From a virus, in the IMG/VR virus record IMGVR_UViG_3300021437_000013, positions 13,825 through 77,824 of that record: a stretch of 64,000 nucleotides of DNA; one strand, written 5' to 3'. The translations under genes and the position numbers were made by a program. Shown here piece after piece: positions 963 to 63,429 of the stretch (position 1 is its first letter; each line of letters begins with the position of its first letter). The notes under the pieces were generated by a model. It saw nothing but the letters and a program-made list of their open reading frames with translations, did not search any database and was not told the DNA's origin.

Positions 963-1637
963 ATGATTGATTTAAACATAATAGGTTCATGTGTGTATGC
1001 ATTAATTGATGATAATAATAAAGAGGTTATTGTTATTGGTACCAGTAATGGATATAAGGGATTAGTAGAAGAGATGTATTGTATATCTACTAAAGTTAAA
1101 TATGATGGGTTTACAGTTACTAACGTTGTAGCTTCACCATTACCAGAAGAATCCAGAATCAGATTACAAACAATAGATAAGCTTATTACTGAATACACAA
1201 ATAAACAGTATATAGTTAGAAACAGCACTAGAAAACGTAGTAGTATGACTTATAAGATTATCTGTAAAAGTATGAAACTTGGTGGGATGATAACCAGACA
1301 GAACATCTTCATAGTTATAGAGAAGAGTATTAAGTATAATGGTAAAGTCCGTGGAGTATTTGAGTCTAACGAAGAGGCTAACAACTTCATTGACTACTTA
1401 AAGAGTATGAATGAGGATATGTTACGGCCACTATCTGCATGTAATGCACTTACTAAAGCTTGGACATTAGAAGAAGAAAGACAGAAATCAGAGTATTTAA
1501 TACCCGGTAAGAAGACTGTGACAGTAAGTATGGATGGTCACGGGAAAGAGGCTAGAAGGATATCTTATCCTAGAGCTGTAATACTACATAACATTAAGCA
1601 GATGTTAGCCGGGTTACCTACAATGCCACTTAACTAA
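963..1637 (+). CDS. hypothetical protein (N-terminal VY...VIG weakly GIY-YIG-like)
   Basis: 224-aa ORF with GAGG RBS and upstream motif; function not recognisable. Confidence 0.75.
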   Translation: MIDLNIIGSCVYALIDDNNKEVIVIGTSNGYKGLVEEMYCISTKVKYDGFTVTNVVASPLPEESRIRLQTIDKLITEYTNKQYIVRNSTRKRSSMTYKIICKSMKLGGMITRQNIFIVIEKSIKYNGKVRGVFESNEEANNFIDYLKSMNEDMLRPLSACNALTKAWTLEEERQKSEYLIPGKKTVTVSMDGHGKEARRISYPRAVILHNIKQMLAGLPTMPLN

Positions 1638-2011
1638 TAATTATGCATATGTCGTAGTATTGCAACTTGATCTAAGAAGCTAATATTAAGCTTTTGAAGC
1701 TGTGTACGTTTAGCCTTAGGTACACTAGCCAACTCTAATTGTAACGTGTTTAAATCGAAATTAGGTGCCTTAGATAACGTCTTAAGTAACACCTCTGCTG
1801 ATATCTCTTTAAGATGCTTACGGTTGGCATACTTAACGTTAAATACACATTCTGGATTAAGGATATCTTTCTCATACTCTATTTCTAACCCCATACCATC
1901 ATATACACCAGTTAATACTAATTCTATCTTACTGTGACTAACTACATCAAATGATTCAGATACAATTAAGTAATGCTCAGTCATGTTGTGTTTGTATTTG
2001 TAATATTTCAT
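1634..2011 (-). CDS. hypothetical protein
   Basis: 125-aa ORF with AAGGAG RBS and own sigma70-like promoter. Confidence 0.8.
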   Translation of the reverse strand: MKYYKYKHNMTEHYLIVSESFDVVSHSKIELVLTGVYDGMGLEIEYEKDILNPECVFNVKYANRKHLKEISAEVLLKTLSKAPNFDLNTLQLELASVPKAKRTQLQKLNISFLDQVAILRHMHNY

Positions 2012-2028
2012 ATTTACTCCTTACCTTC

Positions 2029-2056
2029 ACTATATCATAGCTACATATTAAGTCAA
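2029..2056 (-). promoter_or_regulatory. sigma70-like promoter TTGACT-16-TATAGT (TG extension)
   Basis: Directly upstream of RBS of 1634..2011. Confidence 0.65.
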
Positions 2057-2175
2057 CAAGTATCTATAATAATACTAATATTCATTTTAGACAATAGGAG
2101 GGGCAAGGCATCTTTGTCCTAATAATAGCCCCTGGGGGAGGGTTATGCGCCGATAGACTTGCTTGGTAGTGTTGC

Positions 2176-2244
2176 TCAGGATTTGTTTAGTGCTATTAAC
2201 ACCATTAGGAACACAGAGCTGGAGACAAAAAGAAACAGAACCAT
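2176..2244 (-). CDS. putative 22-aa hydrophobic peptide (type I toxin-like) in a structured RNA
   Basis: MVLFLFVSSSVFLMVLIALNKS; downstream of a - strand promoter and enclosed by long-range stems; weak RBS. Confidence 0.3.
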   Translation of the reverse strand: MVLFLFVSSSVFLMVLIALNKS

Positions 2245-2417
2245 TTACACTAATATCCAAGTTACGCTATCTCATGTCGGTGTATCATCTACTTTACTGT
2301 GCCTTGCCTTATCTCTTTTTGCAGCTTAGTAGTGAATTCCAGGTTATCTTTATACTGCTAACTCTCACAGTTGTCTTTTTAGGTTATGTCCAAAAAGGGT
2401 AAATGACGTAGGATGAT

Positions 2418-2446
2418 AGAATAACACAGAAAGGTAGATAAATCAA
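2418..2446 (-). promoter_or_regulatory. sigma70-like promoter TTGATT-17-TATTCT (TG extension)
   Basis: Near-consensus spacing; points into the ORF-poor structured region 2090-2400. Confidence 0.55.
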
Positions 2447-2484
2447 TAATTATTATATTATTTAGTTGACAAATGAATAGAAAC

Positions 2485-2493
2485 TAACAACTA
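2485..2493 (+). promoter_or_regulatory. TAACAACTA putative late promoter
   Basis: Exact motif before AAGGA RBS of 2512; heads the terminase operon. Confidence 0.7.
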
Positions 2494-2511
2494 CTACTAA
2501 AGGATTAAAAC

Positions 2512-3293: not shown

Positions 3294-3295
3294 TT

Positions 3296-7027: not shown

Positions 7028-9031
7028 ATGTCTAATTCAAATACTTATTTTGCGGATTTAGATAGTAAAGAATGTGCGGCATTATGTATGCAACGTTCAG
7101 CTACATTTTATACTACTTTACAGCGTAATGCCTACCTAGAGAAACTACGTTCTATGTGGTTATTCTATCATGGTATTTATGCCAATCTTGGTGCTGATGA
7201 GCATCAAATTTCTTTTGGTGGTGAACAAGGTGAGATAGTAAATATCCCGATAAACCATTTCAGAAATATTGCAGAACATATTATTAATATGATTACTTCT
7301 AACCGTCCAATGATGGAAGCTAGAGCAGTCAATAATGATTACAAGTCTTTATCTCAAGCTAATTTGGCAGGTAGTATATTAGATTACTACATGAGAAACA
7401 AAGGTATAGAAGACAAGATACATGCCTCGGTTGAAAAAGCCGTAGTTATGGGATGTGGATATATTAAGCTTGAGTGGAACGCTACAGCTGGAGCAGTTCA
7501 TGATGTGAACGATGACACTGGTGAATTTATTTATGAAGGTGAAATTGAATGTAGTGGCTTATCTCCGTTTGACGTTGTAATGGACGGTACTAAAGAATCT
7601 TGGGATAATGAATGGCTTATTGCTCGTTCATTTAAAAATAGACATAATTTAGTAGCTAAGTATCCTGAATTTAAAGATGAGATATTAGCACTACAAACAA
7701 AGTCAGATGATAACCGTTATAGTATTTCAATGTTTACAAATGATAGAACTGATGATATTCCAGTTTATGAGTTTTATCATAAAAGAACAGAAGCAAAACC
7801 AGACGGCCGTTACATGCTATATTTATCAGATAACATTATCTTGATGGATACTAAATTAGTTTATAGAGAGATTCCAATATACAGACTTGCTATGTCAGAG
7901 ATTATGGGAACTCCATACGCTTACACTAATATGTTTGACGTTTACCCAATCCAAGAAGCCATTAATGGATTAAACTCTACAATCTTAACTAATCAAAATG
8001 CTACGGGTATTCAAAGTCTTTGGGTTCAAAAAGGTTCTGACTTTAATCTTGAATCTGTTATTGGTGGTATGAACTTAATTGAGTCTGAAACTAAACCAGA
8101 ACCAATACAACTTACAGCTACTGCACCAGAGACGTTTAACTACTTAAAGAAACTTGAGCAAGATATCGAAACTATTTCAGGTATTAATGCGGTCACAAGA
8201 GGTAACCCTGCAAGCTCACTTCGCTCTGGTAACTCTTTAGCATTAGTTCAGGCGATGAGCTTACAGTATATGTCAAAGTTCCAAAAGAACTATGTAACTT
8301 TTATTGAACAAGTTGGTACTTCTTTATTAAACATACTAAAAGATTTTGCCTCTACCCCTAAACTTATGGAAGTAGTGGGAAGAAATAACAGAGCCTTTAC
8401 TAAAGAGTTTACTGGTGATATGATTAAGGATATTAATCGTGTAGTAGTTGACGTTGGTAACCCATTATCAAGAAGTACTGCTGGCCGTGTACAAATGGCA
8501 GAACAGTTATTACAAATGAAGCTTATTAAGAATCCACAACAATACTTTATGGTAATGAATACTGGTAGACTTGATAACATGTATGATTCTGACATGAACC
8601 AGTTATTATTAGTTAAGAAAGAAAATGAAGATATGTTAGATGGTAAAAAGGCAACGGCCGCATTATTAGATGCTCACCGTATGCACATCATCGAACACCA
8701 AGCGGTATCAAGTGATCCAGAGTTAAGACAAAATGCAGAACTTGTTGCTAATCTTTATGAGCACATTCAAGAGCATATTAATTTCTTAAGAACTGCTGAC
8801 CCGGACTTATTACAATTGATTAATGAAACTCCATTGAATCCACCACAACAAGCAGGCAACCCAATACCACCAGAGAATATGCCGCCACAAAGTGCAGTTG
8901 AAAATTCTCCAATGAATAATGTTATGAGTCAACAAGGTGGAGCACAACAAAATGCAGGTTCATTACCCGGACTTCCAAAAGTTGATTCGGCATTATTGCC
9001 AAATTCAGCGCTGAACCCTAACCCGAAATAA
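7028..9031 (+). CDS. portal protein
   Basis: 667 aa after terminase; P22/N4-like portal features (INHFRN, G.G.IK..W, ISGIN...RG), Q/P-rich tail. Confidence 0.85.
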   Translation: MSNSNTYFADLDSKECAALCMQRSATFYTTLQRNAYLEKLRSMWLFYHGIYANLGADEHQISFGGEQGEIVNIPINHFRNIAEHIINMITSNRPMMEARAVNNDYKSLSQANLAGSILDYYMRNKGIEDKIHASVEKAVVMGCGYIKLEWNATAGAVHDVNDDTGEFIYEGEIECSGLSPFDVVMDGTKESWDNEWLIARSFKNRHNLVAKYPEFKDEILALQTKSDDNRYSISMFTNDRTDDIPVYEFYHKRTEAKPDGRYMLYLSDNIILMDTKLVYREIPIYRLAMSEIMGTPYAYTNMFDVYPIQEAINGLNSTILTNQNATGIQSLWVQKGSDFNLESVIGGMNLIESETKPEPIQLTATAPETFNYLKKLEQDIETISGINAVTRGNPASSLRSGNSLALVQAMSLQYMSKFQKNYVTFIEQVGTSLLNILKDFASTPKLMEVVGRNNRAFTKEFTGDMIKDINRVVVDVGNPLSRSTAGRVQMAEQLLQMKLIKNPQQYFMVMNTGRLDNMYDSDMNQLLLVKKENEDMLDGKKATAALLDAHRMHIIEHQAVSSDPELRQNAELVANLYEHIQEHINFLRTADPDLLQLINETPLNPPQQAGNPIPPENMPPQSAVENSPMNNVMSQQGGAQQNAGSLPGLPKVDSALLPNSALNPNPK

Positions 9032-29696: not shown

Positions 29697-32600
29697 ATGT
29701 CAAATCTATTTGTACTTCGTGCTAAAGGCTTAAATACGTCTCCTAATGAACTAAATAGAGAAGAAGGCTCTTTAATAGAAGCTACAAACGTCACCATACG
29801 TCGTGACGGAGTCATAGAGCCTGTTCGTGGGTTCAGCCTGTGGGGTAGTAGCCTCCCCATCTCTAATCAGCGTATAAACCAATTAATAAGCTATAGAGGC
29901 CGTATATTCAGACAATACTCAAGTAAAATGAGTTATGATAACTCTGGTAATGGTGACTTTGTTGATTGTGTTGATTCTTTATCAGAAACACAAGATGGAT
30001 TACGAGTTAAGTCTATTGAAGCTAATGGGAACCTTTATATTACCTCATCATCTGGTATCAAGAAGATATCAGCTAAAAGTACAGATGACTTTAAGACTAC
30101 AGCTGGATTTATAACAAACTCTGGTGGTATTAAAGCCGCTGACTTCTCTCCTACTCTTCAAGTAACCCAAGGAGATACAACAAGTTTCTTTCTTGGTGAT
30201 TCAACTATAGCTTACCGCATTGTATGGGGTACTAAAGATAAGAATAATAACTTAGTGCTTGGTTCACCATCTCAAAGGGAAGTAGTATATAATCCACTGT
30301 TAGGTATGATTTCAAATGACTTTGTTACATTACTTAATACTTTGGATAGCTTAAATAGTGCAACTCCGACTACAGCAATGATTAGGGATGCTAACTACCT
30401 ATCTACTTTAAAAGTTACTTTATCTGATTCTGCGAATACTGTTCTTGCTAATATGATTGCATTATGTACTAAACTTGATAATGATATATTCTTAGCAAGT
30501 CAATCCTCATCACAACCGTTAGTAATATCTACAACTACAATTGCCTCTGGTCTTTGTACTATAAACTTTTCAACTGGTAACCCATCAACATATTTAAGTG
30601 TTGGTAAGAAGGTTAATTTAGCTGGGTTCAGTCCTACCACTGGAACTTTAAATGGTGTTCAAGCTTTAACGGCCGTAACATCAACCTCTATTACATTTGC
30701 TACAACTGCAACTGGTGCGGTTACTTTATCAACTGCACAAATTCACTATGCTCAATATCAATCAATTACACAACCTGCTACACCATCAATAATAGCTACT
30801 ACACAAGAGCTCACTAATATTCAAACATATTTACAAGATATTTTAACTAAACTACAAAATGAACCATTAACTATTATATCATCAACTGATGCAGTATTAT
30901 TATCCAGTATAATTATAACATCGTCAGCTAAAGTAAAGCTTACTATTACTATCCCAGAGGAAGTAACAAGTAACTATTTCTTTCAAGTTTATCGTTCATC
31001 TTTAACTACTTCACAAGGTGTATTCACATTAGACTCTTTAACTCCTGATGACGAGTTACAACTTGTTTATGAAGCTTACCCAACAAGTACAGAATTAGCT
31101 GCACATTCGGTTACTATAGTAGATGATACACCAGATGAATTTAGAGGTGCTAACTTATACACTAACGCATCAACTGGTGAAGGTATTTTACAAGCTAACG
31201 AACTACCACCATTCGCTAAAGATATTAATCGTTTTAAAGGTTCTATCTTCTATGCCAATACGAGAACAAGACATAGTATGTCGCCATCTCTATTAGGGGT
31301 AGTAAAGATGCGTACTGACTTTGAAGCTGGTAATATCCCATCAATAACCACTTCTGATAGTACCAACATATTTCACACTTATGACTTTGTTGAGGGTATT
31401 AAACAACAAGTAGCCATAACTTGTGTTGCCGATGTGTCTAATAGCTTAAATGGTAAATACTTCTTACTTGATACATCAACAGTATCATTATGTGTTTACT
31501 TTGAAACTACCACAGCAACTGACCCAGCTATATCAGGAAGAACAAGCGTAAAAGTTAGTATTTCAACTGGCGATAGTGCGTCAACAGTTGCCACTAAACT
31601 TGCTAATAAACTATCTACAAGATTATTTGACTTTAATAACGTAGCAGTATCTACAGCTACAGTTACAACTACTGACATTAATTATGTTGAGGTTGTAGCA
31701 TCTACAGCAGGTAATTCAGGCTTTAGTATATCTAATACACTTGGCCGCGGTGAAAAGATTGCTCGTAACGTGACAAGCATTACTTGCCCTGCCGCATCTG
31801 CATTTGTATCAACTGCAACAACTGCGGACTACTTCACATTAAACTCTACAGGTGATTATAATAATTACTATATTTGGTTTAAAGTTGGTTCTTCAATAAG
31901 TCCAGCATTAGCAAATAAACAAGGGATTATGATAACCCTTACTGGTGCTGAAACTAACGTACAAGTAGCAGCTGCAATATTAGCGGCTATCCCATCAGAC
32001 TTTACAGTAACGGCATTATCTAACGTATTAACTATTACTAATATCAGATATGGAAAGTGTACGGCCGCTACAGAAGTAGTTGCATCAAGTAGCTTTATCC
32101 TATCTACTACCGTAACAGGTGGTATAAATGTATTATTATCTGCTGAAATATCTCCGGCATTAGCAACTGACCAAACTGCAAGAAGTTTAGTAAGGATTAT
32201 CAATAAGAATGAAGATGATATCATATCCGCTTATTATATGTCATCCGCAACAGATGTTCCGGGTAAACTATTATTTCAAGATAGAAGTTTAACTGAAAAT
32301 GCTTTTTATATCACAGCTAACAATACTAATACTGGTGGTAGCTTTAATCCTGACATATCCCCAACAGTTAATATTGCAAGCACTACCGCAGTTGGTGACA
32401 AAACATTAATCACTACTGCCACAGCTCACGGCCTTACAAGTACAGATAGTGTTATCATTGGGTATACTAACTCTGTACCAGTTCTACATGGTATTTATGC
32501 CGTAGAATATAATAATGCCACAAGCTTTTATATAGCTCAAAAGACAATTACAAATGCTACATCAGGTGGTTATACTCCATTAAAAGATGCAGTAACTTCT

Positions 32601-37625: not shown

Positions 37626-39161
37626 ATGAATATACAAGAACTATTAGGATTGATTAAGAAACCACAAGACGATGATAATATACCAAGTAGTATTGCTCGT
37701 CCAAGTGACGAAAATATGCTTGTATCTAATCCTGAGGCAGCTAAGAAGTTTATTCAGATGTATGGTGGAACTGTAGATAAGAACGGTGTGGTAGTATCTC
37801 CTACACAACAAAACGTTACAGCATTACCAAATAAGAACGCAGACCTACCATCTTTCGCTGATGTTGAATCTCAAGCTAAAGAAGACATTGGTAATAACGT
37901 AGAAGACTTAAAGGATGTTTCAACAGAAGAGTCAGACAGTCAACCAGATGTTGAAAACATTAAATCACAATACCCATCAATTGATTCATCAGAAGTATGG
38001 AACCGCAATAAAGATAAGACTTTAAACCCAGAAATGGAAACAGCTGATAAAGCCCCAGAACAATCAAGTCAACAATCTTTAGTTGATGCTTACTTAAAAA
38101 CTCAACAAGCACCATCACAAAACCCACAAGACTTATTAGCAATGCTAAAACAAGCTCAAGATATTGAGAATCAAAAACAATTATCACATGGCCTATTACA
38201 AGCCTCTACTATGTTAGGTCAGGCGTTAACTCACCAAAAATTAGATACTTCTAATGTTGATAAAATTGGTACTGGTGAGAATCAAGTTACAGCGTTACAA
38301 AAACAAATTTCAATGGGCCAAGAGCAATCTAATATTGACATGGCTCAGAAACAACGTGACCCTAATAGTGCTATCTCTGTTCAAGGCAGAGAGCTATTAA
38401 AGAAGGTTGGTATTAATGTTCCTGATACTTTCTCAGCTGCAGATGCAGAGAAGTTAGGACTTAACTATTCTAACTTATTAACTCAGAAAAATTCACAAGA
38501 TTTAAAACGTGAAATGATGAATGAGACTTTAGGAAGTAAAGAAGCTATCGCAGAGTTAAGAGGTTCTTCTAAAGGTAATGATGCTCAAAATAAAGCTTAT
38601 GAAAAGGCAGTTCAACAAGCGGAAGCTGTAAGAGGCGATAAAGCAGTTCAACAAGCTAAAGCAGATATGTATGCAATTAAGAAAGTTAATTCATTAGTTA
38701 ATCTAAACGGTGACCCTAATAATCTTGACCAACAACAAGTAGAATTACTTGCCTCGGAAATTGGTAAAATTGCAACTGGTGGAGTTCCAACTATCCACGA
38801 ACTTCAAACCCTTAACCCATCGTCTATTAGTAAATCTTTAAGAGAAGCAGCAACGGCCGTTTCAAATCAACCAACTCCAGCTAACCGTGGCGAGTTTGTT
38901 AATGCTATGAAAAAGTATGCAGATAGCATCAATCATGATGCACAATCTACTATCAAAGAAAAGTATCAAAGAGCATTAAGTGCATTTGAATCTAAAATGG
39001 GTTCTGATAATGTAGCTAATTTTAAAAAAGCATACATGGGTGAGGATAATCCGGTACAAGCAATGTCACCGCAAGATGCGCAAAAGATGACTAAGCCACA
39101 AACGGTTATACAGAACGGCCACACGTATACACTTAATCCATTGACGGGGGCTTACGAATAG
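37626..39161 (+). CDS. putative ejection protein
   Basis: 511-aa helical low-complexity protein in ejection cluster. Confidence 0.65.
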   Translation: MNIQELLGLIKKPQDDDNIPSSIARPSDENMLVSNPEAAKKFIQMYGGTVDKNGVVVSPTQQNVTALPNKNADLPSFADVESQAKEDIGNNVEDLKDVSTEESDSQPDVENIKSQYPSIDSSEVWNRNKDKTLNPEMETADKAPEQSSQQSLVDAYLKTQQAPSQNPQDLLAMLKQAQDIENQKQLSHGLLQASTMLGQALTHQKLDTSNVDKIGTGENQVTALQKQISMGQEQSNIDMAQKQRDPNSAISVQGRELLKKVGINVPDTFSAADAEKLGLNYSNLLTQKNSQDLKREMMNETLGSKEAIAELRGSSKGNDAQNKAYEKAVQQAEAVRGDKAVQQAKADMYAIKKVNSLVNLNGDPNNLDQQQVELLASEIGKIATGGVPTIHELQTLNPSSISKSLREAATAVSNQPTPANRGEFVNAMKKYADSINHDAQSTIKEKYQRALSAFESKMGSDNVANFKKAYMGEDNPVQAMSPQDAQKMTKPQTVIQNGHTYTLNPLTGAYE

Positions 39162-42621: not shown

Positions 42622-43015
42622 TCATTACCTCTTCATGCCCAGCACTATCATATACTACTTCTCTTTTTTTACATACTTCACAGAAGTAAATAGTCCTCAC
42701 CATTGAAGTAGCAAGAATCTTGTACGGCCGTTGACAATCTTTACACTTATCTTCGTGTACTTCTTTAGCTTCTTTATCAATCTTCTTTAATTTGTTTTCT
42801 TGTTTTAAGGCTTTAATAACCTTTTCGACTGGAACACCATCAAGTTTGTTATCAATAAAGCTGCGAGTTTTATCAAATGCTTCTTGTAATGTTTTAAGTT
42901 CAGATATTAACTTCTGTTTATCAGACGCTAATCGTCTTATTTTTGATTTCAGTTCTTTTACTTCACCAGACTTACCATCTTCTTTTGAAAATGATTTATG
43001 TTTACGACCCATCAT
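42608..43015 (-). CDS. coiled-coil zinc-ribbon protein
   Basis: CKDC...CEVC. Confidence 0.7.
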   Translation of the reverse strand: MMGRKHKSFSKEDGKSGEVKELKSKIRRLASDKQKLISELKTLQEAFDKTRSFIDNKLDGVPVEKVIKALKQENKLKKIDKEAKEVHEDKCKDCQRPYKILATSMVRTIYFCEVCKKREVVYDSAGHEEVMNEVE

Positions 43016-44182: not shown

Positions 44183-44184
44183 GT

Positions 44185-45078
44185 TTACTCCAATTTCATT
44201 TCTTTTAGTATATGACAAATAACGTCAACTGTCCATCCATCCCCTAATAAATCTTGCGCTTGTGGATAAGATACACATTTTGTATATCCCACAGGAACAG
44301 TTTGAGCTTGTTCTAATTCTTCTCTGGTTAAGTATCTGCAAAAATCCTCAAATTGAACTAACCCAGAATTAGGAGAGCGGTCTTGTTTTCTTGTTAGACA
44401 TTGAACTTTATCAGCATAAGTAACATTAGCACAACCAGAAAGTGCGCCATTTCGTCCTTTCCCTTCTCTCCACATTTTAACTCTTGATGGAGTATTTTTT
44501 ACTTTATACAAAGATTCAATCTTGGTATTTTTTTCTTTAAAATCTTGAAAAGAGATATTCTTATCTTTTGGGATAGTGATATTTGGTATATTACTCCAAT
44601 ATACTCTTGGTCTACTTTGAAAAGAAACTAAGTTGCTATTTATTGCAATTCCAGTTACTCCTAAATACTCATCTAATTGTGATTTACTTTCTTTTTTCAT
44701 AATAACATTTTCTAATAAAAAGTAAGTAGGATTTATTTCTTTTAGTAATCTCAAATATTCATAAAACAACTTAGACTTGTCGCCGCTTAATCCCTTACCA
44801 TTAACTTTTAGTAAAGAAAAGTCTTGACATGGTGAACCACCAATTAACAAATCAATCTTTCCAACATTAAATACTCCATTTTCAGTAGTCAATATACCAT
44901 CTTTATAAGATACTTTTGTTACGTCACCGATGTGTATAGTTTTTGGGTAATTAGATAATGTTACTTTTATAGCTAACTTTTTTATTTCGGAAGCGTAGTA
45001 ATTATCATAATGAATACCTAACCTATTTAATGCGATTTGTCCACATGACATACCATCAAATAAGCTCAGTACGTTCAT
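44185..45078 (-). CDS. DNA cytosine-C5 methyltransferase
   Basis: LSLFDG, GGSPCQ, LLENV, Q.R.R motifs. Confidence 0.92.
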   Translation of the reverse strand: MNVLSLFDGMSCGQIALNRLGIHYDNYYASEIKKLAIKVTLSNYPKTIHIGDVTKVSYKDGILTTENGVFNVGKIDLLIGGSPCQDFSLLKVNGKGLSGDKSKLFYEYLRLLKEINPTYFLLENVIMKKESKSQLDEYLGVTGIAINSNLVSFQSRPRVYWSNIPNITIPKDKNISFQDFKEKNTKIESLYKVKNTPSRVKMWREGKGRNGALSGCANVTYADKVQCLTRKQDRSPNSGLVQFEDFCRYLTREELEQAQTVPVGYTKCVSYPQAQDLLGDGWTVDVICHILKEMKLE

Positions 45079-45428
45079 TATAACCACCCATCAAGTAAAT
45101 GAATCTCACCAGATGGTACATCATTAGAAGTAGATGGGCCGTGGTGTAAATCATGTAATCCTGCAGCTAACTTTAAACTATGTTCATTAGCAAATGAAAG
45201 ATTCTTTTTACAATACTTAACCAACAAATCTTCTCTAACTACTTTGTAGTCATTATCGTTAAGCTTAATTTTAGTAATGTTTAAAGCTTGTGTATTAGAT
45301 AAGAACTCAACTTCTAAACCAGTTTCAAGTATAATATACTCGTAAAAGGATAAAAGAGGGTCTTGGTGCTTGTTTGTACTTAAGAAGATGTTCTTAATGT
45401 CTTTTGGGTTAAATTTTAGTATTTTCAT
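45078..45428 (-). CDS. hypothetical protein
   Basis: Coupled ORF with AAGGAG RBS. Confidence 0.7.
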   Translation of the reverse strand: MKILKFNPKDIKNIFLSTNKHQDPLLSFYEYIILETGLEVEFLSNTQALNITKIKLNDNDYKVVREDLLVKYCKKNLSFANEHSLKLAAGLHDLHHGPSTSNDVPSGEIHLLDGWL

Positions 45429-47955: not shown

Positions 47956-47984
47956 ACTTTAGCATAGTAAGAATTAGGAGTCAA
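47956..47984 (-). promoter_or_regulatory. sigma70-like promoter TTGACT-17-TAAAGT (TG extension)
   Basis: Consensus spacing upstream of 47938. Confidence 0.6.
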
Positions 47985-48657
47985 CTTTATTTGTGATGGC
48001 TTGTATCCTGTTTTCCGCTATTTTAAAGTATGCCTCATCTTTTTCTATACCTATGAATTTACGATTAAGATTTTTACAGGCTAAGCCTGTAGTTCCAGAA
48101 CCCATAAATGGGTCTAATACTATTTGATTTTCATTACTGTGAATCTTAACCAAATCTTCCATCAATTTAAGGCTTTTCTGTGTGGGGTGTAATCCTTTAT
48201 CTATTGAATGTACAAATTTAGGCCTTTGGTATTTATCATCTTGTCTATTAAATACCCACTTAGCACCTTTTTTTGTAAACCAGATAGCACATTCATAGTC
48301 TGTAATATATCGCCTATCTCTATTTCTAGGCATGGGGTTAGATTTTTCAAGTCTAATCATATCTTTAGTGTCGAATCCATTTGCTTCCGCAAACTTAGAT
48401 ATATCTCCTAAGTTCTTCCAATCATTGAAGCATATAAAACTACCGTTCTTGTTTAAAATTCTATTCACTTCAACAATATAAGATAAAATATCAGCATCTT
48501 TATCCCATTCACCGAAATCTATCCCTGCCCTACCCATAGTATTAAAATTATTATCTCTAGCTATATTGTATGGAGGGTCTGTTAAAACCAGATCAACGCT
48601 CCCTGTTTTTATGCTTTTCAAAAGGTCTAAACAATCGCCATTCAATAAATTAATCAT
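47974..48657 (-). CDS. DNA N4/N6 methyltransferase (beta class)
   Basis: TDPPY precedes HPTQK and DPFMGSGTT. Confidence 0.93.
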   Translation of the reverse strand: MINLLNGDCLDLLKSIKTGSVDLVLTDPPYNIARDNNFNTMGRAGIDFGEWDKDADILSYIVEVNRILNKNGSFICFNDWKNLGDISKFAEANGFDTKDMIRLEKSNPMPRNRDRRYITDYECAIWFTKKGAKWVFNRQDDKYQRPKFVHSIDKGLHPTQKSLKLMEDLVKIHSNENQIVLDPFMGSGTTGLACKNLNRKFIGIEKDEAYFKIAENRIQAITNKVDS

Positions 48658-51146
48658 AAATCCTCCAATAAGTGTTTATTCTTAACTAAAGAATAATCTA
48701 TAAATGGATTTTCGTCAAGGATATTATCTAAAATACTTACCGTATCATATACCCTATTTATGAGCTTTTCAACATTAACATCATTATTATAATCTTCAAT
48801 ACACCTTAATCCAGTAATCTTTGTTTCTTTAACTTTTACTTTACCATTCTTTAATTGAGTTTCTTCTTTCAAAGAAGATATAACACATGGAAATAAATAA
48901 ATCTTATCCCCTTCTTGTACTTCCTTTTTAGCTATAGCATCCCATATATCACGTTCATTCTTTCTTGCTTCGGGATTCTTAGCACAATCTAAAACTGGCT
49001 TTGTTACTGTTTTCTTTTGACACCATCTTAGTATGTCAGTGACATTCATAGCTTCTCTTAAATAGCTATGATAGATTTCTTTAAGATTACGGCCGTTATT
49101 TTCTAAGGAATCTCTAATTAAATCATCTAATAGCTCTTTTAAAGCCGGTTCAAGCTTACTACTCTTTAATGCGCTACCTTTCTTAGTATATTTACTGCCA
49201 GTCTTTAATACATAATTCTTAGCTTTTAATGCTAAACAAGAATCGTAATATCCGTCATTTTCCCATTCAATCATATCGGGAGATAAATCATTAATCTCTT
49301 TTGTTAAAGTTTCAATCTCTTCACTACTAAACTTGCTCATATCAGCTTTACAAAATGAAATTGAATCTGTATCACTTGGGCCAATAATAAAGTCATGTTG
49401 AATAGTAGCAGGGAGTTTTCCATCTAATGATAAATATTTCTGTTTATCAGCTTTAACTTGCATTTTAGCATAAAACTTATCAATCCAATAATGATAATTA
49501 TTCCCACTGGCCCAACGTAATGCCAAATCAATTACTTCTCTGGTTTCTTTAGTAATAATCTGTGCAATATGTGCATCATTAAAATTAAGGCCAGAAGTAT
49601 TAGTTACACCGTAGGAAGAATTGATAATTATCTTATTTACTGAATCTAAATCTTTCCAGTATTGTTCACCAGTTTCTTTAGCCAGTTTTTTATATTCAAA
49701 GCGTTTATTAGCAAAGTAATTAACCATATTATAAAAATTAGCTCTTGGGTCTTTAGTTTTATTATAAAGCTTTAATCTTAATATTTGTGATGGATATGCC
49801 GACTTTATATCAACTTTAAATAAGTTATTATAAATACCAGGAATACCAAAACTAATACCGCCCTCCACTTTCTCTTCCGATATATCATCAGCTAATGGGA
49901 TACTTTCACCTATTTGTAGATATGACCTAACTAAAAATGAGTTTATTTGTCCACCAGTAGCAGTTTCCATCATCATTTGGAAACTCTTTGGGATATGTTG
50001 AGTAAAATAAAAAAAAGGAGATGCAAACGTATCAAATAGCTTTAAAGAGTCTTCTGCGTCCTCTTCTGCATATTGAATAACTTTAAGCTTCATTTCTGGA
50101 CTTTTCCAGTATTCAGCTATCTTACTGGCATCAATATATGTTCTATCCGCTTTATCTTGTCCTATAGCTTTAATAAGCACCTTTAAAGCGTATGATTCAA
50201 ATTTACGCTGTGAATCAGCAGTCAACATTAAAAAGAAGGTATCAATAACTTCTCGACCAAATACAGTAACTCTTTTGTATGAATAAGACTGACTACCATC
50301 TTTGCGCTTCTGTCTAACTCTATCCTCAAATTCTAAAGCAGAGTTATCTCTTCCTAATAGTAATTCTCCAGCTCTTGTTTCAAGATAAGGTAAATCGAAT
50401 ATTAGTATGTTGTGTCCGAGTAAAAGACTTGGATTGATTTCTCTAACCCATTTACACCAATCATTAATCATTTCAACATCAGATGAATAATTATCAATAT
50501 TAAAGGTTTTATTAACGGCCATACCATTAGCATTTCTATAATAATTAGTAATAAGAAATACTTTAGCGTTTTTTGCTAAAGGGTCAATCCCTGATGTTTC
50601 AATATCAAAAGATAAAACACTAACTTCATTAATTTTCATTTGTTTAAAATAAGTAAAACCATGAAGCGTCATAAATGCTTCTGGAAAGTTATTTATATTA
50701 AATAATCTATATTTCCAAATATTCTGTTTATGTTCATTATATTCAGCTTCATCTTTATATTCCCTAATATACTTATAATGAGTCTTACCCTTTAATGGTT
50801 TAGTGTTTGAGTTTGATACATTACTTAATACCCAATGTTTATATGGGAATATGCTTTCTTGTATACCAGAGGAAGATTCTCTAAATATATGAATGTTATT
50901 ATTTTTATAAGATGCATTTACAATTCTATCTAATGGATTCTTACCATAAATTAATGTATCTGTTTCACTAAGTGGGTATTCAATAGATAATAAGAACTCT
51001 GGGGATATATCAATTAAAGCTTTATCTTCACCATAATTAATCAATAAATTATTACCTCTATTTTCAATGATAGATATACTACCATCTTTTAAACAGCTAT
51101 TAAATTCATCCACAGATGATTTACTATCTAATAAAAGATTCAACAT
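48654..51146 (-). CDS. DNA polymerase family B with 3'-5' exonuclease
   Basis: FDIET, HN...FD, Y...D exonuclease motifs; DIKSAYPS, K...NSSYG, DTDS polymerase motifs. Confidence 0.93.
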   Translation of the reverse strand: MLNLLLDSKSSVDEFNSCLKDGSISIIENRGNNLLINYGEDKALIDISPEFLLSIEYPLSETDTLIYGKNPLDRIVNASYKNNNIHIFRESSSGIQESIFPYKHWVLSNVSNSNTKPLKGKTHYKYIREYKDEAEYNEHKQNIWKYRLFNINNFPEAFMTLHGFTYFKQMKINEVSVLSFDIETSGIDPLAKNAKVFLITNYYRNANGMAVNKTFNIDNYSSDVEMINDWCKWVREINPSLLLGHNILIFDLPYLETRAGELLLGRDNSALEFEDRVRQKRKDGSQSYSYKRVTVFGREVIDTFFLMLTADSQRKFESYALKVLIKAIGQDKADRTYIDASKIAEYWKSPEMKLKVIQYAEEDAEDSLKLFDTFASPFFYFTQHIPKSFQMMMETATGGQINSFLVRSYLQIGESIPLADDISEEKVEGGISFGIPGIYNNLFKVDIKSAYPSQILRLKLYNKTKDPRANFYNMVNYFANKRFEYKKLAKETGEQYWKDLDSVNKIIINSSYGVTNTSGLNFNDAHIAQIITKETREVIDLALRWASGNNYHYWIDKFYAKMQVKADKQKYLSLDGKLPATIQHDFIIGPSDTDSISFCKADMSKFSSEEIETLTKEINDLSPDMIEWENDGYYDSCLALKAKNYVLKTGSKYTKKGSALKSSKLEPALKELLDDLIRDSLENNGRNLKEIYHSYLREAMNVTDILRWCQKKTVTKPVLDCAKNPEARKNERDIWDAIAKKEVQEGDKIYLFPCVISSLKEETQLKNGKVKVKETKITGLRCIEDYNNDVNVEKLINRVYDTVSILDNILDENPFIDYSLVKNKHLLEDL

Positions 51147-53207: not shown

Positions 53208-53396
53208 TTATTCGTCAAAGCTTTCGCCCGTTTGTACGGCCGTAAGTTCCTTCTTTAATATTAAGCTTAGCATGTTGGATATTTCTCTTCTTGATGGTAG
53301 ATTAGCTTCGTCAATGTACCCTTCCTCATCTACATAGAATACCGCTACTACGTCTTGTAAATCTGTGCTTCTAATTTCGTATTGGTAGAATTTCAT
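53208..53396 (-). CDS. hypothetical protein
   Basis: AAGGAG RBS; promoter upstream. Confidence 0.7.
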   Translation of the reverse strand: MKFYQYEIRSTDLQDVVAVFYVDEEGYIDEANLPSRREISNMLSLILKKELTAVQTGESFDE

Positions 53397-56307: not shown

Positions 56308-56310
56308 ATA

Positions 56311-56838
56311 TTATTCCTTTCCATCAACTATAGCATCAAAATCTTCTTTAAGCAATACTTTTTCACAACTACCACCCGATACAGGTAATAAGAAGAAACA
56401 CTGCTCTAACAAGTTAAGCTTCCTTTGAAGTTCAGCTTCCCTTTTATTGCAGATTGCATACATACCTGCAAGTTCCTTTTGTGTGAAGCTTTCTAATGTG
56501 GCCTTGTGTATTACGTCATCCTTTATGTCGTTAAGCTCAAGTGTAAGGATGCTGAAATCAGATTCATTAAACTCACTAAAATAAGCCTTAAGGATGCTGA
56601 AATCAGATTCATTAAACTCACTAAAATAAGACTTTGGGTATTTCTCATAATACTCTTCTACAGCTGTAGTAAAATCTTTATCGGTAGCATTAAAAGACTC
56701 AACCCTTAAAACCTCATATGCATCTTCTAATTCTTGTTTATAAGCTTTAGCATTAGCAAGAGAGGCAAATGAACCTTCGACAAGTTGAGTTGAATTTTCA
56801 TAGTCAAAAACGTTGTTGATTACTTGGTATATTTTCAT
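56311..56838 (-). CDS. hypothetical protein, paralog copy 1
   Basis: AAGGAGAAACAA-ATG at MKIYQV; in frame with upstream segment starting at 57039. Confidence 0.7.
   Translation of the reverse strand: MKIYQVINNVFDYENSTQLVEGSFASLANAKAYKQELEDAYEVLRVESFNATDKDFTTAVEEYYEKYPKSYFSEFNESDFSILKAYFSEFNESDFSILTLELNDIKDDVIHKATLESFTQKELAGMYAICNKREAELQRKLNLLEQCFFLLPVSGGSCEKVLLKEDFDAIVDGKE
56544..56630. repeat. 42-bp tandem duplication (45-bp period)
   Basis: TAAGGATGCTGAAATCAGATTCATTAAACTCACTAAAATAAG at 56544 and 56589. Confidence 0.92.
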
Positions 56839-57039
56839 TTGTTTCTCCTTTTTATACATACTAAACGTGTAAACTATTTCGCCATCTTCTTTAACTTGTT
56901 TTCCATCTAATTCAATCTTATATCCGGTATCCAAACCATAAAACATTGCATAACTCATAGCACTATCAAACGCAATTTCTGCTATCTCTTTTGAGGATAA
57001 GTTAGCATCTTCTATGGTAAAAGTATGCAATTTTTCCAT
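56839..57039 (-). CDS. hypothetical domain fused in frame to paralog copy 1
   Basis: GGAG RBS before MEKLHTF; no stop before MKIYQV. Confidence 0.55.
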
Positions 57040-57040: not shown

Positions 57041-57289
57041 TTACTCCAATAGATATTTAACGTATTTTTCTTTAGCAAAGTTTAAAGCTGCTTCGGTAGA
57101 TTCTACCAGCATAGTATGATGCACTACTTCATAATTATTTAAATGAAACTTGCCTCGCATTTCTTCTAACACTTTTCTACGTTCATTTAACTTCTCTTCT
57201 AATGTAGAAATTATAATTTCATGAAGATTCGTTTTAGTGAATGTTTTTAAACAAATCAAATTAATACTCGGCTCTTCTATTCTTTTCAT
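57041..57289 (-). CDS. hypothetical protein
   Basis: AAGGA RBS. Confidence 0.7.
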   Translation of the reverse strand: MKRIEEPSINLICLKTFTKTNLHEIIISTLEEKLNERRKVLEEMRGKFHLNNYEVVHHTMLVESTEAALNFAKEKYVKYLLE

Positions 57290-57292
57290 ATA

Positions 57293-57796
57293 TTATTCCT
57301 TTCCATCAACTATAGCATCAAAATCTTCTTTAAGCAACACTTTTTCACAGCTGCCACCTGACACCGGTAATAAGAAGAAACATTGTGCTAACAAGTTAAT
57401 CTTCCTTTGAAGTTCACTTTCTCTTTTATTGCAGATTGCATACATACCTGAAAGTTCTTCTTGTGTGAAGCTTTCTAATGTGGCCTTGTGTATTACATCA
57501 TCCTTTATGTCGTTAAGCTCAAGTGTAAGGATGCTGAAATCAGATTCATTAAACTCACTAAAATAAGACTTTGGGTATTTCTCATAATACTCTTCTACGG
57601 CCGCAGTAAAAATCTCAGTATTAACGTCTAAAGTCTCATCAGATATGTTTTTTAACATCAACCTTAGAACAGATTGCGCATCTTCTAATTCCTGTTTATA
57701 AACTTTGGCATTAGCAAGGGAGGCAAATGAACCTTCGACAAGTTGAGTTGAATTCTCGTAGTCGGAAATGTTGTTGATTACTTGGTATATTTTCAT
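57293..57796 (-). CDS. hypothetical protein, paralog copy 2
   Basis: AAGGAG RBS; near-identical to 56311..56838. Confidence 0.8.
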   Translation of the reverse strand: MKIYQVINNISDYENSTQLVEGSFASLANAKVYKQELEDAQSVLRLMLKNISDETLDVNTEIFTAAVEEYYEKYPKSYFSEFNESDFSILTLELNDIKDDVIHKATLESFTQEELSGMYAICNKRESELQRKINLLAQCFFLLPVSGGSCEKVLLKEDFDAIVDGKE

Positions 57797-57821
57797 TTGA
57801 TTCTCCTTGGTGTACTCTTTC

Positions 57822-58415: not shown

Positions 58416-58421
58416 GAGAAA

Positions 58422-60784: not shown

Positions 60785-60944
60785 TCTCTTTTCTCCCATT
60801 TTCATCTCCCACTAACACAAGATGAGGCTTACCCTTAGTCAAACCTCTATCTTCTAATTCACTTTGTATATATCTGATTTCTTCTAACATCTCTTCTAAC
60901 TGTTTAAACAAAATCCGAGTCTTTCCATGCGATAATAAAGTCAT
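60777..60944 (-). CDS. hypothetical protein
   Basis: GGGAG RBS before MTLLSH. Confidence 0.5.
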   Translation of the reverse strand: MTLLSHGKTRILFKQLEEMLEEIRYIQSELEDRGLTKGKPHLVLVGDENGRKENE

Positions 60945-61239
60945 GTTTATCTCCCCACATATCCTCTTCATCTAAACTTTTATCAGTAATAAAGTCAATT
61001 ACTCCAATATTACTATACAGCTCATTTGAACTGCAATATACCAACATGATAGCATACCATTCGGTATCAAATACTATATTAATCATTGAAGCACTTCTAT
61101 TCTTAACTTCCTTGTTAATCCTATCAACCAAGTCTAATACTTCCGCTTTAGACCGTTTAACTTCAATCTTAATGACGGTATTGCTACCGCCAATAAAATT
61201 TGAATTATCTAACTCTTTGTCATACCATGCTGTAATCAT
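60904..61239 (-). CDS. hypothetical protein
   Basis: GGAG RBS. Confidence 0.65.
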   Translation of the reverse strand: MITAWYDKELDNSNFIGGSNTVIKIEVKRSKAEVLDLVDRINKEVKNRSASMINIVFDTEWYAIMLVYCSSNELYSNIGVIDFITDKSLDEEDMWGDKHDFIIAWKDSDFV

Positions 61240-61241
61240 AT

Positions 61242-61553
61242 CTACTCCGCTGGTAATACTTCTGCCTCTGGGATATGAGCGTTCTTCTCTTGTGCTTCTA
61301 CAGCTTGCATTTGTGCAATCATAATCATTGCATATTTAGCTTCAAGTATTTGCATACCAAGATTACATGCCGTAACTTCTGCTTCACTCTTAAGGTTCAT
61401 TGGCTTCTCAAGTAAAGGGTGTTGCATAATAGTATTGATTACTCTTACTTTAGCTTTAGCACCAAGGCCATTGATAATATTACTAAACTGTGGCACTAAT
61501 GTTTTAAATGTATAAGCAAATACGTCTTCTGGTTTATTTTCTATATTTTCCAT
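61242..61553 (-). CDS. hypothetical protein
   Basis: GAGGAG RBS. Confidence 0.75.
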   Translation of the reverse strand: MENIENKPEDVFAYTFKTLVPQFSNIINGLGAKAKVRVINTIMQHPLLEKPMNLKSEAEVTACNLGMQILEAKYAMIMIAQMQAVEAQEKNAHIPEAEVLPAE

Positions 61554-61555
61554 AA

Positions 61556-61807
61556 TTACTCCTCAATTACTGCATTTACATATGAGATTACAAAGTCAGG
61601 AATCTTATTACGCTTTTCTTCCGCTTGAGATTCTGTAATGACTCCACGAGATACTAATCCGGCTAAATCCTGATCTATCGTCTTCATAAATAATCTAGCA
61701 CCTTTTGGTAATGTGATATCTTTATCAATCTTGATATAGTTACCTTTATCCCCTTTTATTACCTGTCCAATGTAGTTTAAATACTTCTTTTTCTTTGCAT
61801 TTGTCAT
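61556..61807 (-). CDS. hypothetical protein (downstream of ERF)
   Basis: AGGAG RBS. Confidence 0.75.
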   Translation of the reverse strand: MTNAKKKKYLNYIGQVIKGDKGNYIKIDKDITLPKGARLFMKTIDQDLAGLVSRGVITESQAEEKRNKIPDFVISYVNAVIEE

Positions 61808-61849
61808 AAATACTCCTGTTTGTTTATTTGTAAGTAGTAAAACTACTTA

Positions 61850-62353
61850 TTAGATTCCTGTTGATACTGGACGTTTAAAGCTTGCTGTGACAGGTTTTGA
61901 TTCTGCTTTTGGTGCTTCTTGTTTAGCTTGTACAAAAGATTTAGGTTCTTCTTTCTTAAACCCTTCACTTGAAGCGTCATTATCTTCTGTTGGTAAACCT
62001 GTGAGAGCTTGTAATTGGTATCTTTTTAAATAACTTTGCGCTGCGCCTGCTCTTTGTGCAAGATTACAACTCTTCATTTCTGGTATCTCTGTTGAACCTG
62101 TGGAACCTAAGAACTGACCAGATGAATGTAAAAGTAAAGTAGTAACCTTAACCGAGTTAGGTTCACTTTCTTCAATAAGCTGCATAAAAGACAATCCATT
62201 ATTATTTAGTGGTTCTTTCACTGCGTCAATAACCGCTTCAAGGTTGGCGTAATTGTAACCAAAAGCTTTACTTGCTTTCTTTACTCCACTAATTTCAATC
62301 TGTGCTTTCACTAAAGCGGCCGCCAATTCGTTTAATTGTTCTGATTTAATCAT
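61850..62353 (-). CDS. erf: ERF-family single-strand annealing protein
   Basis: Y.YA.L, L...GLSF.Q, T.L.HSSGQ, Q..GAA.SY.KRY.L....GL..ED.DA. Confidence 0.9.
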   Translation of the reverse strand: MIKSEQLNELAAALVKAQIEISGVKKASKAFGYNYANLEAVIDAVKEPLNNNGLSFMQLIEESEPNSVKVTTLLLHSSGQFLGSTGSTEIPEMKSCNLAQRAGAAQSYLKRYQLQALTGLPTEDNDASSEGFKKEEPKSFVQAKQEAPKAESKPVTASFKRPVSTGI

Positions 62354-62525
62354 TTTTCTCTCCTTCTTTTAACTCATTCTTTTTACTCTGAAACAGAGTA
62401 TATTCTAACATTATTAACCCGATGTATATCTTTTGTGCATCAACCAATGGTTCCTTCTGAACCCACAACATAGCTGAAAAACTAATAGCTATTACAATGC
62501 TAAACCAATTAAATAGTTTTTTCAT
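62346..62525 (-). CDS. 59-aa membrane protein (not in ORF track)
   Basis: GAGG RBS; MKKLFNWFSIVIAISFSAMLW...; fills the gap. Confidence 0.55.
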   Translation of the reverse strand: MKKLFNWFSIVIAISFSAMLWVQKEPLVDAQKIYIGLIMLEYTLFQSKKNELKEGEKND

Positions 62526-63429
62526 TTTTAACCTCTACTTTAATGCTATCACGCTCTTCTTTAGTAGTCAAGCCTTTCATATCATCTTTCCAACATAAGC
62601 TGTAGTAATCGCATAACTTGCCGAATGCATAACACTTGTTACGTTCATTCTTCTCAAACTTCTCATCTTTAATATCTTGCACCACTTCGATAAACTCAGA
62701 TATAACTTTATCTTGTAAGTCTTCTGGCACTATATCAACTATAACTTGAGTCTTGAAGTTCTTCTTATTCATTGTTAAAAAACCTGCATGTTTGATACCA
62801 GTGGCATAAGTATACAAGGCCGTTTGATGCTTGGTAAGAACACTATTCTTAGCATATGGACTGCTCGTTGACTTGTTATCCAATATAGCGTGAACAACAC
62901 TACCATCAGCTAATTCAATCTTAGCCTCTAAATCTATTATACCGATAATCTCATCCTCAGTCTCATTACCATCTTCACAGCTTCCTTTTATACTAATATT
63001 CTTTTGAATACTAATAACTTCCTGAATCCTTGGAAGTATTTCAGCATGGTAAACAGTTAGTAGCTTATTGCCTTTCGCTTTTAAAGATAGCCAATTGGCT
63101 CTGTGAGCTTTCTTAGCACCTTCTGGCATACTATCTAAGGCTTCACAATCAGAAGGGCTTAAAAGGCTTATATCAAGGTCTGATGCGAAGTAATCAATAT
63201 TCTCGGCATGTTCATACTTACTCCATCCAGAATCAAATATGTCACACACTGAAAATAATACACCACTTTCTTTATGATGTTCTAATAAATAGTTGAGGGC
63301 ATTATCTAATGCCGAGCCAAAAATTAACGCCGATGACTGTCTAATTGGACGAATCTTGTCAACATAATGAAGCTTGTAACTTCTCTTACACTGACAATAC
63401 TTATCCTTTGCCGATATTGATATCTTCAC
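62509..63429 (-). CDS. PD-(D/E)XK (RecB/Cas4-like) nuclease
   Basis: S.S...Y..C, FGSALD, GIIDL, ILDNKS, Q..LY, C-terminal Cys cluster. Confidence 0.85.
   Translation of the reverse strand: MKISISAKDKYCQCKRSYKLHYVDKIRPIRQSSALIFGSALDNALNYLLEHHKESGVLFSVCDIFDSGWSKYEHAENIDYFASDLDISLLSPSDCEALDSMPEGAKKAHRANWLSLKAKGNKLLTVYHAEILPRIQEVISIQKNISIKGSCEDGNETEDEIIGIIDLEAKIELADGSVVHAILDNKSTSSPYAKNSVLTKHQTALYTYATGIKHAGFLTMNKKNFKTQVIVDIVPEDLQDKVISEFIEVVQDIKDEKFEKNERNKCYAFGKLCDYYSLCWKDDMKGLTTKEERDSIKVEVKNEKTI

Follow-up and report, generated by a model that had tools for sequence, protein, structure and literature searches.

Why would an AT-rich phage genome, which purges many short palindromes to zero as phages are known to do, be sprinkled with the GC-rich word ACGGCC and its reverse complement GGCCGT? 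The question is raised by the virus record IMGVR_UViG_3300021437_000013, a single-contig phage genome of 77,824 bp, of which bases 13825-77824 form the window, the 64,000-nt stretch that was analysed; positions are those of the window unless stated otherwise. A sequence-only reading of the window had reported about 29 ACGGCC and 28 GGCCGT at about 51 sites, six of them the full palindrome ACGGCCGT, and the recount matched exactly, palindrome coordinates included: 29 ACGGCC, 28 GGCCGT and 6 ACGGCCGT, together with 92 GGCC. The GC content, given there as about 33%, was 35.5% when measured, and the roughly 10-fold excess over about 5 expected sites was borne out at ~11-fold (57 half-sites versus 5.3 expected under a first-order Markov model). 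As had also been claimed, more than half of the GGCC stood in ACGGCC/GGCCGT context (51 of 92, 55%). The whole 77.8-kb genome held 111 GGCC and 34+35 = 69 half-sites at 62 places, 7 of which were full palindromes. The sites in the window were as follows.

1424..62823, no strand: dispersed set of 51 ACGGCC/GGCCGT places
ACGGCC on the + strand: 1424, 4039, 7803, 8654, 10185, 11837, 14852, 21351, 22766, 24848
ACGGCC on the + strand, continued: 26870, 29067, 29164, 30669, 32061, 32428, 33552, 38853, 39115, 40207
ACGGCC on the + strand, continued: 41139, 42410, 42724, 49089, 50515, 53236, 53687, 54526, 57597
GGCCGT on the + strand: 3089, 6087, 6466, 7805, 8483, 13880, 15741, 16934, 17416, 20681
GGCCGT on the + strand, continued: 28005, 29898, 30671, 34413, 38855, 39555, 42726, 45137, 46488, 49091
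GGCCGT on the + strand, continued: 51226, 52308, 53238, 53449, 55442, 59380, 60751, 62818
7803..7810, no strand: full palindrome ACGGCCGT, inside the portal gene
30669..30676, no strand: full palindrome ACGGCCGT
38853..38860, no strand: full palindrome ACGGCCGT
42724..42731, no strand: full palindrome ACGGCCGT
49089..49096, no strand: full palindrome ACGGCCGT, inside the family B DNA polymerase gene
53236..53243, no strand: full palindrome ACGGCCGT

The excess was measured against nulls that respect the coding sequence. A total of 118 open reading frames (ORFs), covering 96.5% of the genome, were called, and each site was placed in its frame. All 69 half-sites fell inside ORF calls and none in the non-coding island of ~2.3 kb; relative to the genes, 39 read ACGGCC and 30 read GGCCGT. 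Four frame classes were heavily used, namely ACG-GCC (20 sites, encoding Thr-Ala), xAC-GGC-Cxx (16, [NHDY]-Gly-[PLHQR]), GGC-CGT (11, Gly-Arg), and xxG-GCC-GTx (18, x-Ala-Val), and the two rare classes require Arg-CGG or Pro-CCG codons. Shuffling of synonymous codons within genes, with protein and codon usage kept, gave 9.7±2.9 half-sites (maximum 18 in 1000 shuffles) against the 69 observed (z=20). When codon-junction dinucleotides were kept as well, the shuffles gave 15.7±3.5 half-sites (maximum 31), with 0.7 palindromes versus the 7 observed. Under the codon-aware null, no hexamer of the genome was more over-represented than ACGGCC (z=18.7), and next came the overlapping CGGCCA and CGGCCG. 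The proportion of synonymous opportunities that were filled was 39/233 for ACGGCC and 30/170 for GGCCGT, ~17% overall, and 10-34% in each of the six frame classes. For control words of the same composition the fill was mostly 0-1%, the highest values (3-6%) belonging to AGCCGC and to the neighbour words GCGGCC, GGCCGC, CCGGCC, and GGCCGG. Fill was alike in core genes, which are common to relatives, and in genes unique to this phage, and sites occurred in early and late genes. Because the excess resists shuffling and every frame is filled, the word is a signal in the DNA itself and not a by-product of coding. The sequence-only reading had proposed such a DNA-level signal and had named disappearance under amino-acid- and codon-preserving shuffles as the outcome that would speak against it; the excess persisted through both shuffles.

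The letters around the GGCC core indicated what the full target is. The base preceding the core was C in 105 of 222 flanks, the base before CGGCC was A in 69 cases, G in 23, C in 11, and T in 2, and the base after ACGGCC was a purine at 47 of the 57 window sites. One-letter variants of ACGGCCGT were enriched 22-fold when they differed at positions 1/8 and 7-fold at positions 2/7, versus 0- to 1.3-fold at the inner positions 3-6. The full octamer itself was present 14 times versus 0.21 expected (first-order model, both strands counted), an excess of ~60-fold, and ACGGCC was completed to the palindrome in 20% of cases versus ~3% expected, ~6 times more commonly. Since variation is confined to the outer letters while the inner GGCC is fixed, the target is the palindrome ACGGCCGT, with an obligatory GGCC and a flanking C and then A that are progressively looser. 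Tolerance of the outer letters combined with completion of the palindrome is the signature that a symmetric (dimeric) DNA-reading or DNA-modifying protein would give.

The sites were also spread more evenly than chance allows. The mean gap between the 62 places was 1,251 bp with a coefficient of variation (CV) of 0.72, compared with 0.98±0.12 for uniform random placement (P=0.004) and 1.10±0.14 for draws of 62 from the 378 synonymously possible positions, of which 0/5000 reached the observed value. Gaps shorter than 250 bp numbered 5 versus 13.7 expected, and the variance-to-mean ratio was 0.5-0.7 in 1.25-5 kb windows. In the long tail-fibre genes, which offer 36-50 possible places, only 3-6 sites each were found, ~1 per 0.8-1.5 kb. 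The genome thus keeps to about one site per 1.25 kb, and both short gaps and empty stretches are scarcer than chance predicts, in agreement with the earlier statement that sites recur every ~1-1.5 kb, in both gene blocks and in several frames. The two orientations were balanced (34:35) and followed one another at random along the genome (29 runs versus 28.4 expected, P=0.48). Taken alone, the sites of either strand were no more regular than subsets obtained by thinning the full set at random, and the even spacing thus belongs to the orientation-free set.

This accumulation stands amid strong avoidance of other words. GATC was present 17 times versus ~250 expected, CGCG 2 versus 75, CCWGG 5 times, and CTGAAG/CTTCAG 0 versus 51 in the synonymous shuffle. 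A dozen 6-bp palindromes, including TACGTA, TTCGAA, ATCGAT, AGATCT, AGTACT, ACATGT, and GAATTC, were at 0-3 copies. This pattern looks like the fingerprint of host restriction enzymes, and amid it CGGCCG was found at 9 times expectation. Purging is the reverse of what has happened to this palindromic word, which is both enriched 7- to 60-fold and evenly spaced, and therefore something reads it.

We then asked if the word is common to the relatives of the phage. Megablast of 24 kb against GenBank phages, an IMG/VR scan with a single polymerase protein, and a metagenome scan with P0123 gave no match. An alignment of polymerase homologues retrieved 80 IMG/VR loci (up to 55% identity) and some GTDB contigs, the nearest of which were binned in Bacteroidia and Flavobacteriaceae metagenome-assembled genomes (MAGs); a metagenome scan with alignment A3 found relatives at 42-49% identity only. 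None of the 80 related loci showed an ACGGCC excess, and 15 of them had no GGCC at all. The nearest complete relative (G005, loci L189-L193; polymerase 55% identical) had 0 GGCC in 81 kb versus ~88 expected; AGCGCT and GAGCTC were also at 0 there. In an orthologue comparison that covered relatives with 42-55% polymerase identity (the polymerases of P0001 and P0002, at 81-90%, lie outside this range), the word was present at 0/29 comparable places, and amino-acid identity at the sites was no higher than overall divergence predicts. The word is thus lineage-specific. Another relative (G001, 38.6 kb) carried ACCGGT 40 times versus 5.4 expected, ~7-fold or one per 960 bp, and neither a C5 nor an N6/N4 methylase was detected in it. 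A dense word is consequently not dependent on a phage methylase of these families, and dense A-flanked GC palindromes recur in the polymerase family of the phage with the words differing. ACCGGT enrichment is noted for G001 (loci L364, L365; also L044, L045, L053, L330, and L339), two unrelated contigs bearing C5 methylase homologues being enriched as well.

The word looks like a viral counterpart of the highly iterated palindromes (HIPs) of cyanobacteria, of which HIP1 is GCGATCGC and the alternates are GGCGCC, rCCGGy, and GCsGC (Elhai 2015, PMC4390886; Xu, Lawrence & Durand 2018, PMC5861425). Published HIPs are from cyanobacteria only (PMC4390886, PMC5861425), and literature searches found no paper on HIP-type words in phages. 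We give about an even chance to the reading that the word is of HIP type and orientation-free, that the host has it too, and that its reader is a symmetric protein; should this be so, the odds that cytosine methylation is the mark are again about even. The phage would then mirror a genome-wide iterated word of its host, as Nostoc phage A1 does with HIP1 and other viral contigs do with ACGGCCGT, and the word would be kept by a spacing-limited process like that proposed for HIPs. In that process the GGCC/CGGCCG core would bear a methyl group on cytosine, put there by a host enzyme and/or one of the two orphan methylases of the phage, and a repair or self-recognition pathway with a reach of ~1 kb would recognise it. 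Fixation of new sites would then occur chiefly away from sites already marked. This could come about through the methyl-directed mismatch-repair ratchet of Elhai, in which sites accumulate to ~1 per 1000 nt and new sites are lost near existing ones (PMC4390886), or through selection that keeps every point of the genome close enough to a mark. A density of this order and a loss of new sites close to old ones are both expected from the ratchet, and equally from selection for coverage. The even spacing is a quantitative target for such models and fits marks acting over ~1 kb, of which the ratchet is an example. The two genes that may write the mark are:

44185..45087, - strand: orphan C5 cytosine DNA methylase, 300 aa (PF00145, E 2e-28; TIGR00675)
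47974..48657, - strand: second orphan DNA methylase, N6/N4 beta class, CcrM-like, 227 aa (PF01555, E 1.6e-45)

The C5 enzyme is a candidate for writing a mark on the word, and the second enzyme might do so instead, as N4-cytosine or N6-adenine methylation; the NCBIfam model nearest to this second enzyme is CcrM, below whose cut-off it falls, and GANTC was at expectation in the genome (242 versus 253).

Other genomes carrying the same word were found. In a sample of 401 Chloroflexota genomes, a tally that includes G587, G686, G758, G452, G559, and G641, which are flagged unpublished, one genome of 4.1 Mb (G664) had 5,706 ACGGCCGT versus 169 copies of the reversed control word, and a 73.7 kb portion of it (50% GC) contained 119 ACGGCCGT, with 83% of half-sites in full palindromes. 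Many viral contigs in IMG/VR, at 46-62% GC, also proved to be saturated with ACGGCCGT when scanned for the pattern, for example 49 copies in 13 kb; L203, L218, L268, and L282 are among these loci. The best available precedent for the word as a host-linked signature, by analogy, is Nostoc phage A1 (L366, KU234533.1 20000-50000), which is cultured and has 36% GC. It carried 14 GCGATCGC in 30 kb versus 0.1 expected (140-fold), with 14 of its 17-21 HIP1 half-sites being full palindromes, and HIP1 is found in its host group (PMC4390886). A low-GC phage can therefore carry the iterated palindrome of its host group at ~1 per 2 kb. Five Chloroflexota genomes reached via polymerase matches showed no ACGGCCGT enrichment, the Bacteroidota genome G381 (45% GC) had ACGGCCGT at only 2.7-fold, and the Silvanigrella phage that gave the best cultured portal match (28%) had the word at only ~2-fold. 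The Bacteroidota outliers G012, G028, G102, G406, G013, and G018 were rejected as carriers, since at 64-69% GC their ACGGCCGT counts follow from base composition.

Several results weigh against a HIP-type word shared with the host. The 401 Bacteroidota and 401 Chloroflexota genomes that were sampled included no low-GC carrier of the word. No genes were found in common between the phage and the ACGGCCGT-rich viral contigs. G664 has 50% GC, and 83% of its half-sites are in full palindromes versus 20% in the phage, from which it follows that the phage is not simply one of the phages of G664; this genome also gave no match to PF00145, Vsr, or the phage methylase, although in a MAG absence is not proven. 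The even spacing fits any function that requires coverage and not repair alone. The closest homologues of the C5 methylase (36-52% identity) lie at 41 IMG/VR loci, none of which was ACGGCC-rich. Finally, a mutational footprint of the very-short-patch (VSP) type was not clear: the C-to-T neighbours of the GGCC core were only mildly low relative to the shuffle expectation (ACAGCC 0.45, ACGACC 0.59, ACGGTC 0.76, and ACGGCT 0.78, all from small counts), and ATGGCC, at 1.31, was not low.

The host need not carry the word if the phage's own C5 methylase recognises ACGGCC/CGGCCG and the phage alone selects or generates the sites, which might serve it for protection or as marks of self. The enzyme has intact catalytic motifs PCQ and ENV in alignment and is rare in relatives, where homologues were found in 2 of 83 related loci (L039 and the short GTDB contig L083) and tblastn of three sequenced relatives found none. 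GGCC, which the word contains, is a classic site of 5-methylcytosine; the phage tolerates 111 GGCC when many relatives purge it; and the HIP1-rich Nostoc phage A1 also carries a methylase, an annotated N6-adenine enzyme. The comparative data pointed the other way. L039, with a 45%-identical enzyme, had no GGCC excess, and Bacteroides phage BU2-2, with a 50%-identical enzyme, avoided GGCC (8 versus 92 expected). Pelagibacter phage HTVC134P, which has a homologue, showed no ACGGCC excess, and Croceibacter phage P2559Y, which also has one, showed an excess of ~3-fold; these 3 GenBank phages and the 41 IMG/VR loci with homologues gave no support for the methylase link. No closer homologue was present in the collections reached. 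The ACCGGT-rich relative was without a detected methylase, and the sequence of the enzyme itself is closest, among solved structures, to the catalytic domains of DNMT3A/B (E 8e-27). DNMT3 acts on CpG and its recognition domain is short, and M.HaeIII matches the N-terminal catalytic core of the phage enzyme alone. We therefore regard an origin of the sites in the phage alone as unlikely. The sequence-only reading had offered the C5 methylase as the enzyme that targets the word; this link is unproven and rests on co-occurrence in one genome, with the 41 loci, BU2-2, the ACCGGT relative, and G664 all unsupportive.

Rather improbable is a reader that needs no methylation, for example a protein of the nucleoid, of DNA condensation, or of packaging, or a dimeric regulator loaded onto the DNA at even distances. 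Such a protein would account for the hierarchy of letters in the palindromic target, the even spacing, and the indifference to orientation, and many genes of the phage are without assignable function. No candidate protein was identified, however, and words of the same class, short GC-rich palindromes of restriction-modification type, are purged in close relatives, which places them in the world of restriction and modification and not in that of DNA architecture. We hold an equally low opinion of a self-contained epigenetic ruler, in which the DNMT3-like orphan methylase would mark ACGGCC(GT) sites kept by evolution ~1.25 kb apart and a repair or self/non-self pathway would read the marks over ~1 kb. 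If this were true, the same palindrome in Chloroflexota and in an unrelated AT-rich phage would mean a shared reader crossing phyla, and phages would be a small, recodable model for the function of highly iterated palindromes.

The sequence-only reading had also offered a Chi-like site for the recombination pair encoded near the end of the window:

61850-62353: ERF
62509-63429: PD-(D/E)XK nuclease

A signal of this kind, for recombination or against degradation, would be read by host RecBCD/AddAB or by this pair. Recombination genes are indeed present and the density is comparable with that of Chi-rich phages, of which phage LLS has ~1 Chi per 1.9 kb (PMC12315714); the Chi content of phages is treated in PMC3784561. 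In the published Chi-rich phages (E. coli phage LLS and Pseudomonas phage MD8), however, the sites are oriented 20:3 or 32:0 and clustered at one end, and the phages are without recombination genes of their own (PMC12315714). Here the ratio was 34:35, with no polarity, no clustering at an end, and no per-strand regularity, and completion of the palindrome misfits a polar signal, all of which makes a Chi-like role very unlikely.

Recognition sites at which a phage primase-helicase starts Okazaki fragments could be spaced evenly at the kilobase scale on both strands, and a suitable gene is encoded:

58838-60805: DnaB-like helicase with a weak primase-polymerase-like N-terminus

Known primase sites are ~3 nt long and strand-specific. 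The target here is palindromic and without per-strand regularity, and G005 keeps a 56%-identical primase-helicase with zero GGCC, so that this role is highly improbable. A coding origin of the excess, whether in the usage of amino acids, codons, or codon pairs or in a protein motif that is repeated, was tested and rejected. One could cite for it the sites in repetitive tail-fibre genes and the several recurrences of ACGGCCACA; against it stand z values of 15-20 relative to codon- and junction-preserving shuffles and the use of four frame classes and both coding orientations, with all six classes filled to 10-34%.

A duplicated gene offered a view of the word in two related copies. As had been claimed, the motif is present in one copy at ~57594 and absent from the other, through changes largely at third codon positions:

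57594..57606, no strand: word-bearing place in one copy of the duplicated gene (TCTACGGCCGCAG)
56657..56669, no strand: corresponding place in the second copy, lacking the word (TCTACAGCTGTAG)

Between TCTACGGCCGCAG and TCTACAGCTGTAG there are three clustered transitions, and the outer C/G letters of GGCC are both among the letters affected. Two of the three fall on third codon positions, and the remaining one turns Thr into Ala, in a comparison of the two copies alone. The paralogues are 80% identical over 579 bp. They are small early genes in tandem (56296-56850 and 57278-57808, - strand), and two segments further distinguish them, one of 21 nt and one of 45 nt that has the look of an internal duplication.

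The genome that carries the word is complete, as indicated by contig ends that are 100% identical over 126 bp (genome 2-127 and 77699-77824, the latter being 63875-64000 of the window); it is circularly closed or has a short terminal repeat, though the record is classed as linear. The structural genes identified were terminase, portal, and capsid. The replication and recombination genes comprised family B polymerase, the DnaB-like primase-helicase, ERF, and the PD-(D/E)XK nuclease, and a pentapeptide-repeat protein was also found. A nucleotide-metabolism set consisted of deoxynucleoside monophosphate (dNMP) kinase, deoxycytidine monophosphate (dCMP) deaminase, dUTPase, ThyX, and class II ribonucleotide reductase (window 43535-44218 and 47149-47589; L001 571-1035, 5001-5621, and 7990-9852). 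No hypermodified-base gene was recognised among the annotated phage genes, and no tRNAs were found in the window. No Vsr endonuclease gene was found above the family cut-off, the best PF03852 match scoring 13.7 bits versus 27. A weak Vsr/MTES_1575 match lay inside the following ORF:

20612-22042, + strand: 476-aa ORF with DUF723/treble-clef N-terminal repeats and a Vsr/DUF559-like PD-(D/E)XK core (PHROGs: homing endonuclease)

This ORF lies directly after the capsid gene and is absent from five relatives and every locus checked, and so is probably a mobile endonuclease gene. It was dropped as an explanation of the word, the Vsr match being below the cut-off and within a DUF723 homing-endonuclease-like ORF.

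Other words were raised or lowered as well. A-tracts (AAAAAA, AAAATT) were at about half of expectation. AAGCTT was raised, at 82 versus 27 expected by composition and 78 versus 42 under the synonymous shuffle, as were the overlapping TAAGCT and TAAAGC; the excess is common to the relatives L012, L015, L026, and L033 and may be a family-wide codon-pair habit. An excess of CTGGTG/GCTGGT in the relatives G006 and G007 had a Chi-like look but was rejected as such, the full octamer being rare and the hexamer being raised in this phage too, probably through coding. CACTTG/CAAGTG in L048 was rejected as a dispersed word, since it was in one orientation (46:0) and came from the repeat unit ATTCCnCACTTGATTCC. 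GACGCT was enriched with an orientation bias in the unrelated L077 and L165 (Pelagibacter phage HTVC134P), at 14:6 and 19:4, and may be a polar host-type word.

Among known systems of short repeated words, DNA uptake sequences and uptake signal sequences (9-12 nt, often inverted pairs in intergenic terminators) are unlike the word, which is 6-8 nt long with all half-sites inside ORFs. In VSP repair (Dcm/Vsr), CCWGG is over-represented and CTWGG depleted in E. coli; the likeness is that a methylase target is over-represented through biased T:G repair, and the differences are that the phage has no Vsr above the cut-off, T-variant words only mildly low, and an excess far above the modest E. coli effect. 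With Chi-rich phages the likeness is a host-type short word accumulated to ~1 per 1-2 kb, but here it is orientation-free, evenly spread, and tending to the palindrome, in a phage with ERF and a nuclease. The ACGGCCGT-saturated Chloroflexota and viral contigs carry the identical full palindrome and show that viruses carry it too; they differ in having 46-62% GC, one site per ~600 bp, and >80% of half-sites in full palindromes, as compared with 35% GC and a polymerase-B phage family here.

The comparison with cyanobacterial HIPs proved apt, in that the phage word is present at ~1 per kb, deviates in its outer letters only, and is evenly spaced. In both, a short GC-rich palindromic word lies within genes and in all frames, far above codon-aware expectation, at a density near 1 per kb (62 places in 77.8 kb). 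One-letter deviations of HIP1 are biased to the outer letters (PMC4390886), and those of the phage word are confined to them. The core is of a kind that methylases typically recognise, the phage does encode a cytosine methylase, the word differs between related lineages, and the function is unexplained in both. The differences are that the phage word sits in a virus for which no cyanobacterial link is shown; that half-sites dominate, 14 of 69 (20%, 7 places) being in full palindromes, so that the full palindrome is not the abundant unit that it is among HIPs; that the excess is 7-fold for the hexamer and ~60-fold for the octamer, versus 15- to 300-fold reported for HIP1; and that the even spacing is short-range, versus the 10-90 kb periodicity reported for HIP1. 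For HIP1, the main argument for selection comes from sites conserved between genomes. For ~30 years the role of highly iterated palindromes has been an open question, and all work on it has used cyanobacterial genomes of several megabases. This 78-kb phage would be a small system for direct tests: it has 62 sites and two candidate methylases, and among its relatives the word is either purged or exchanged for another.

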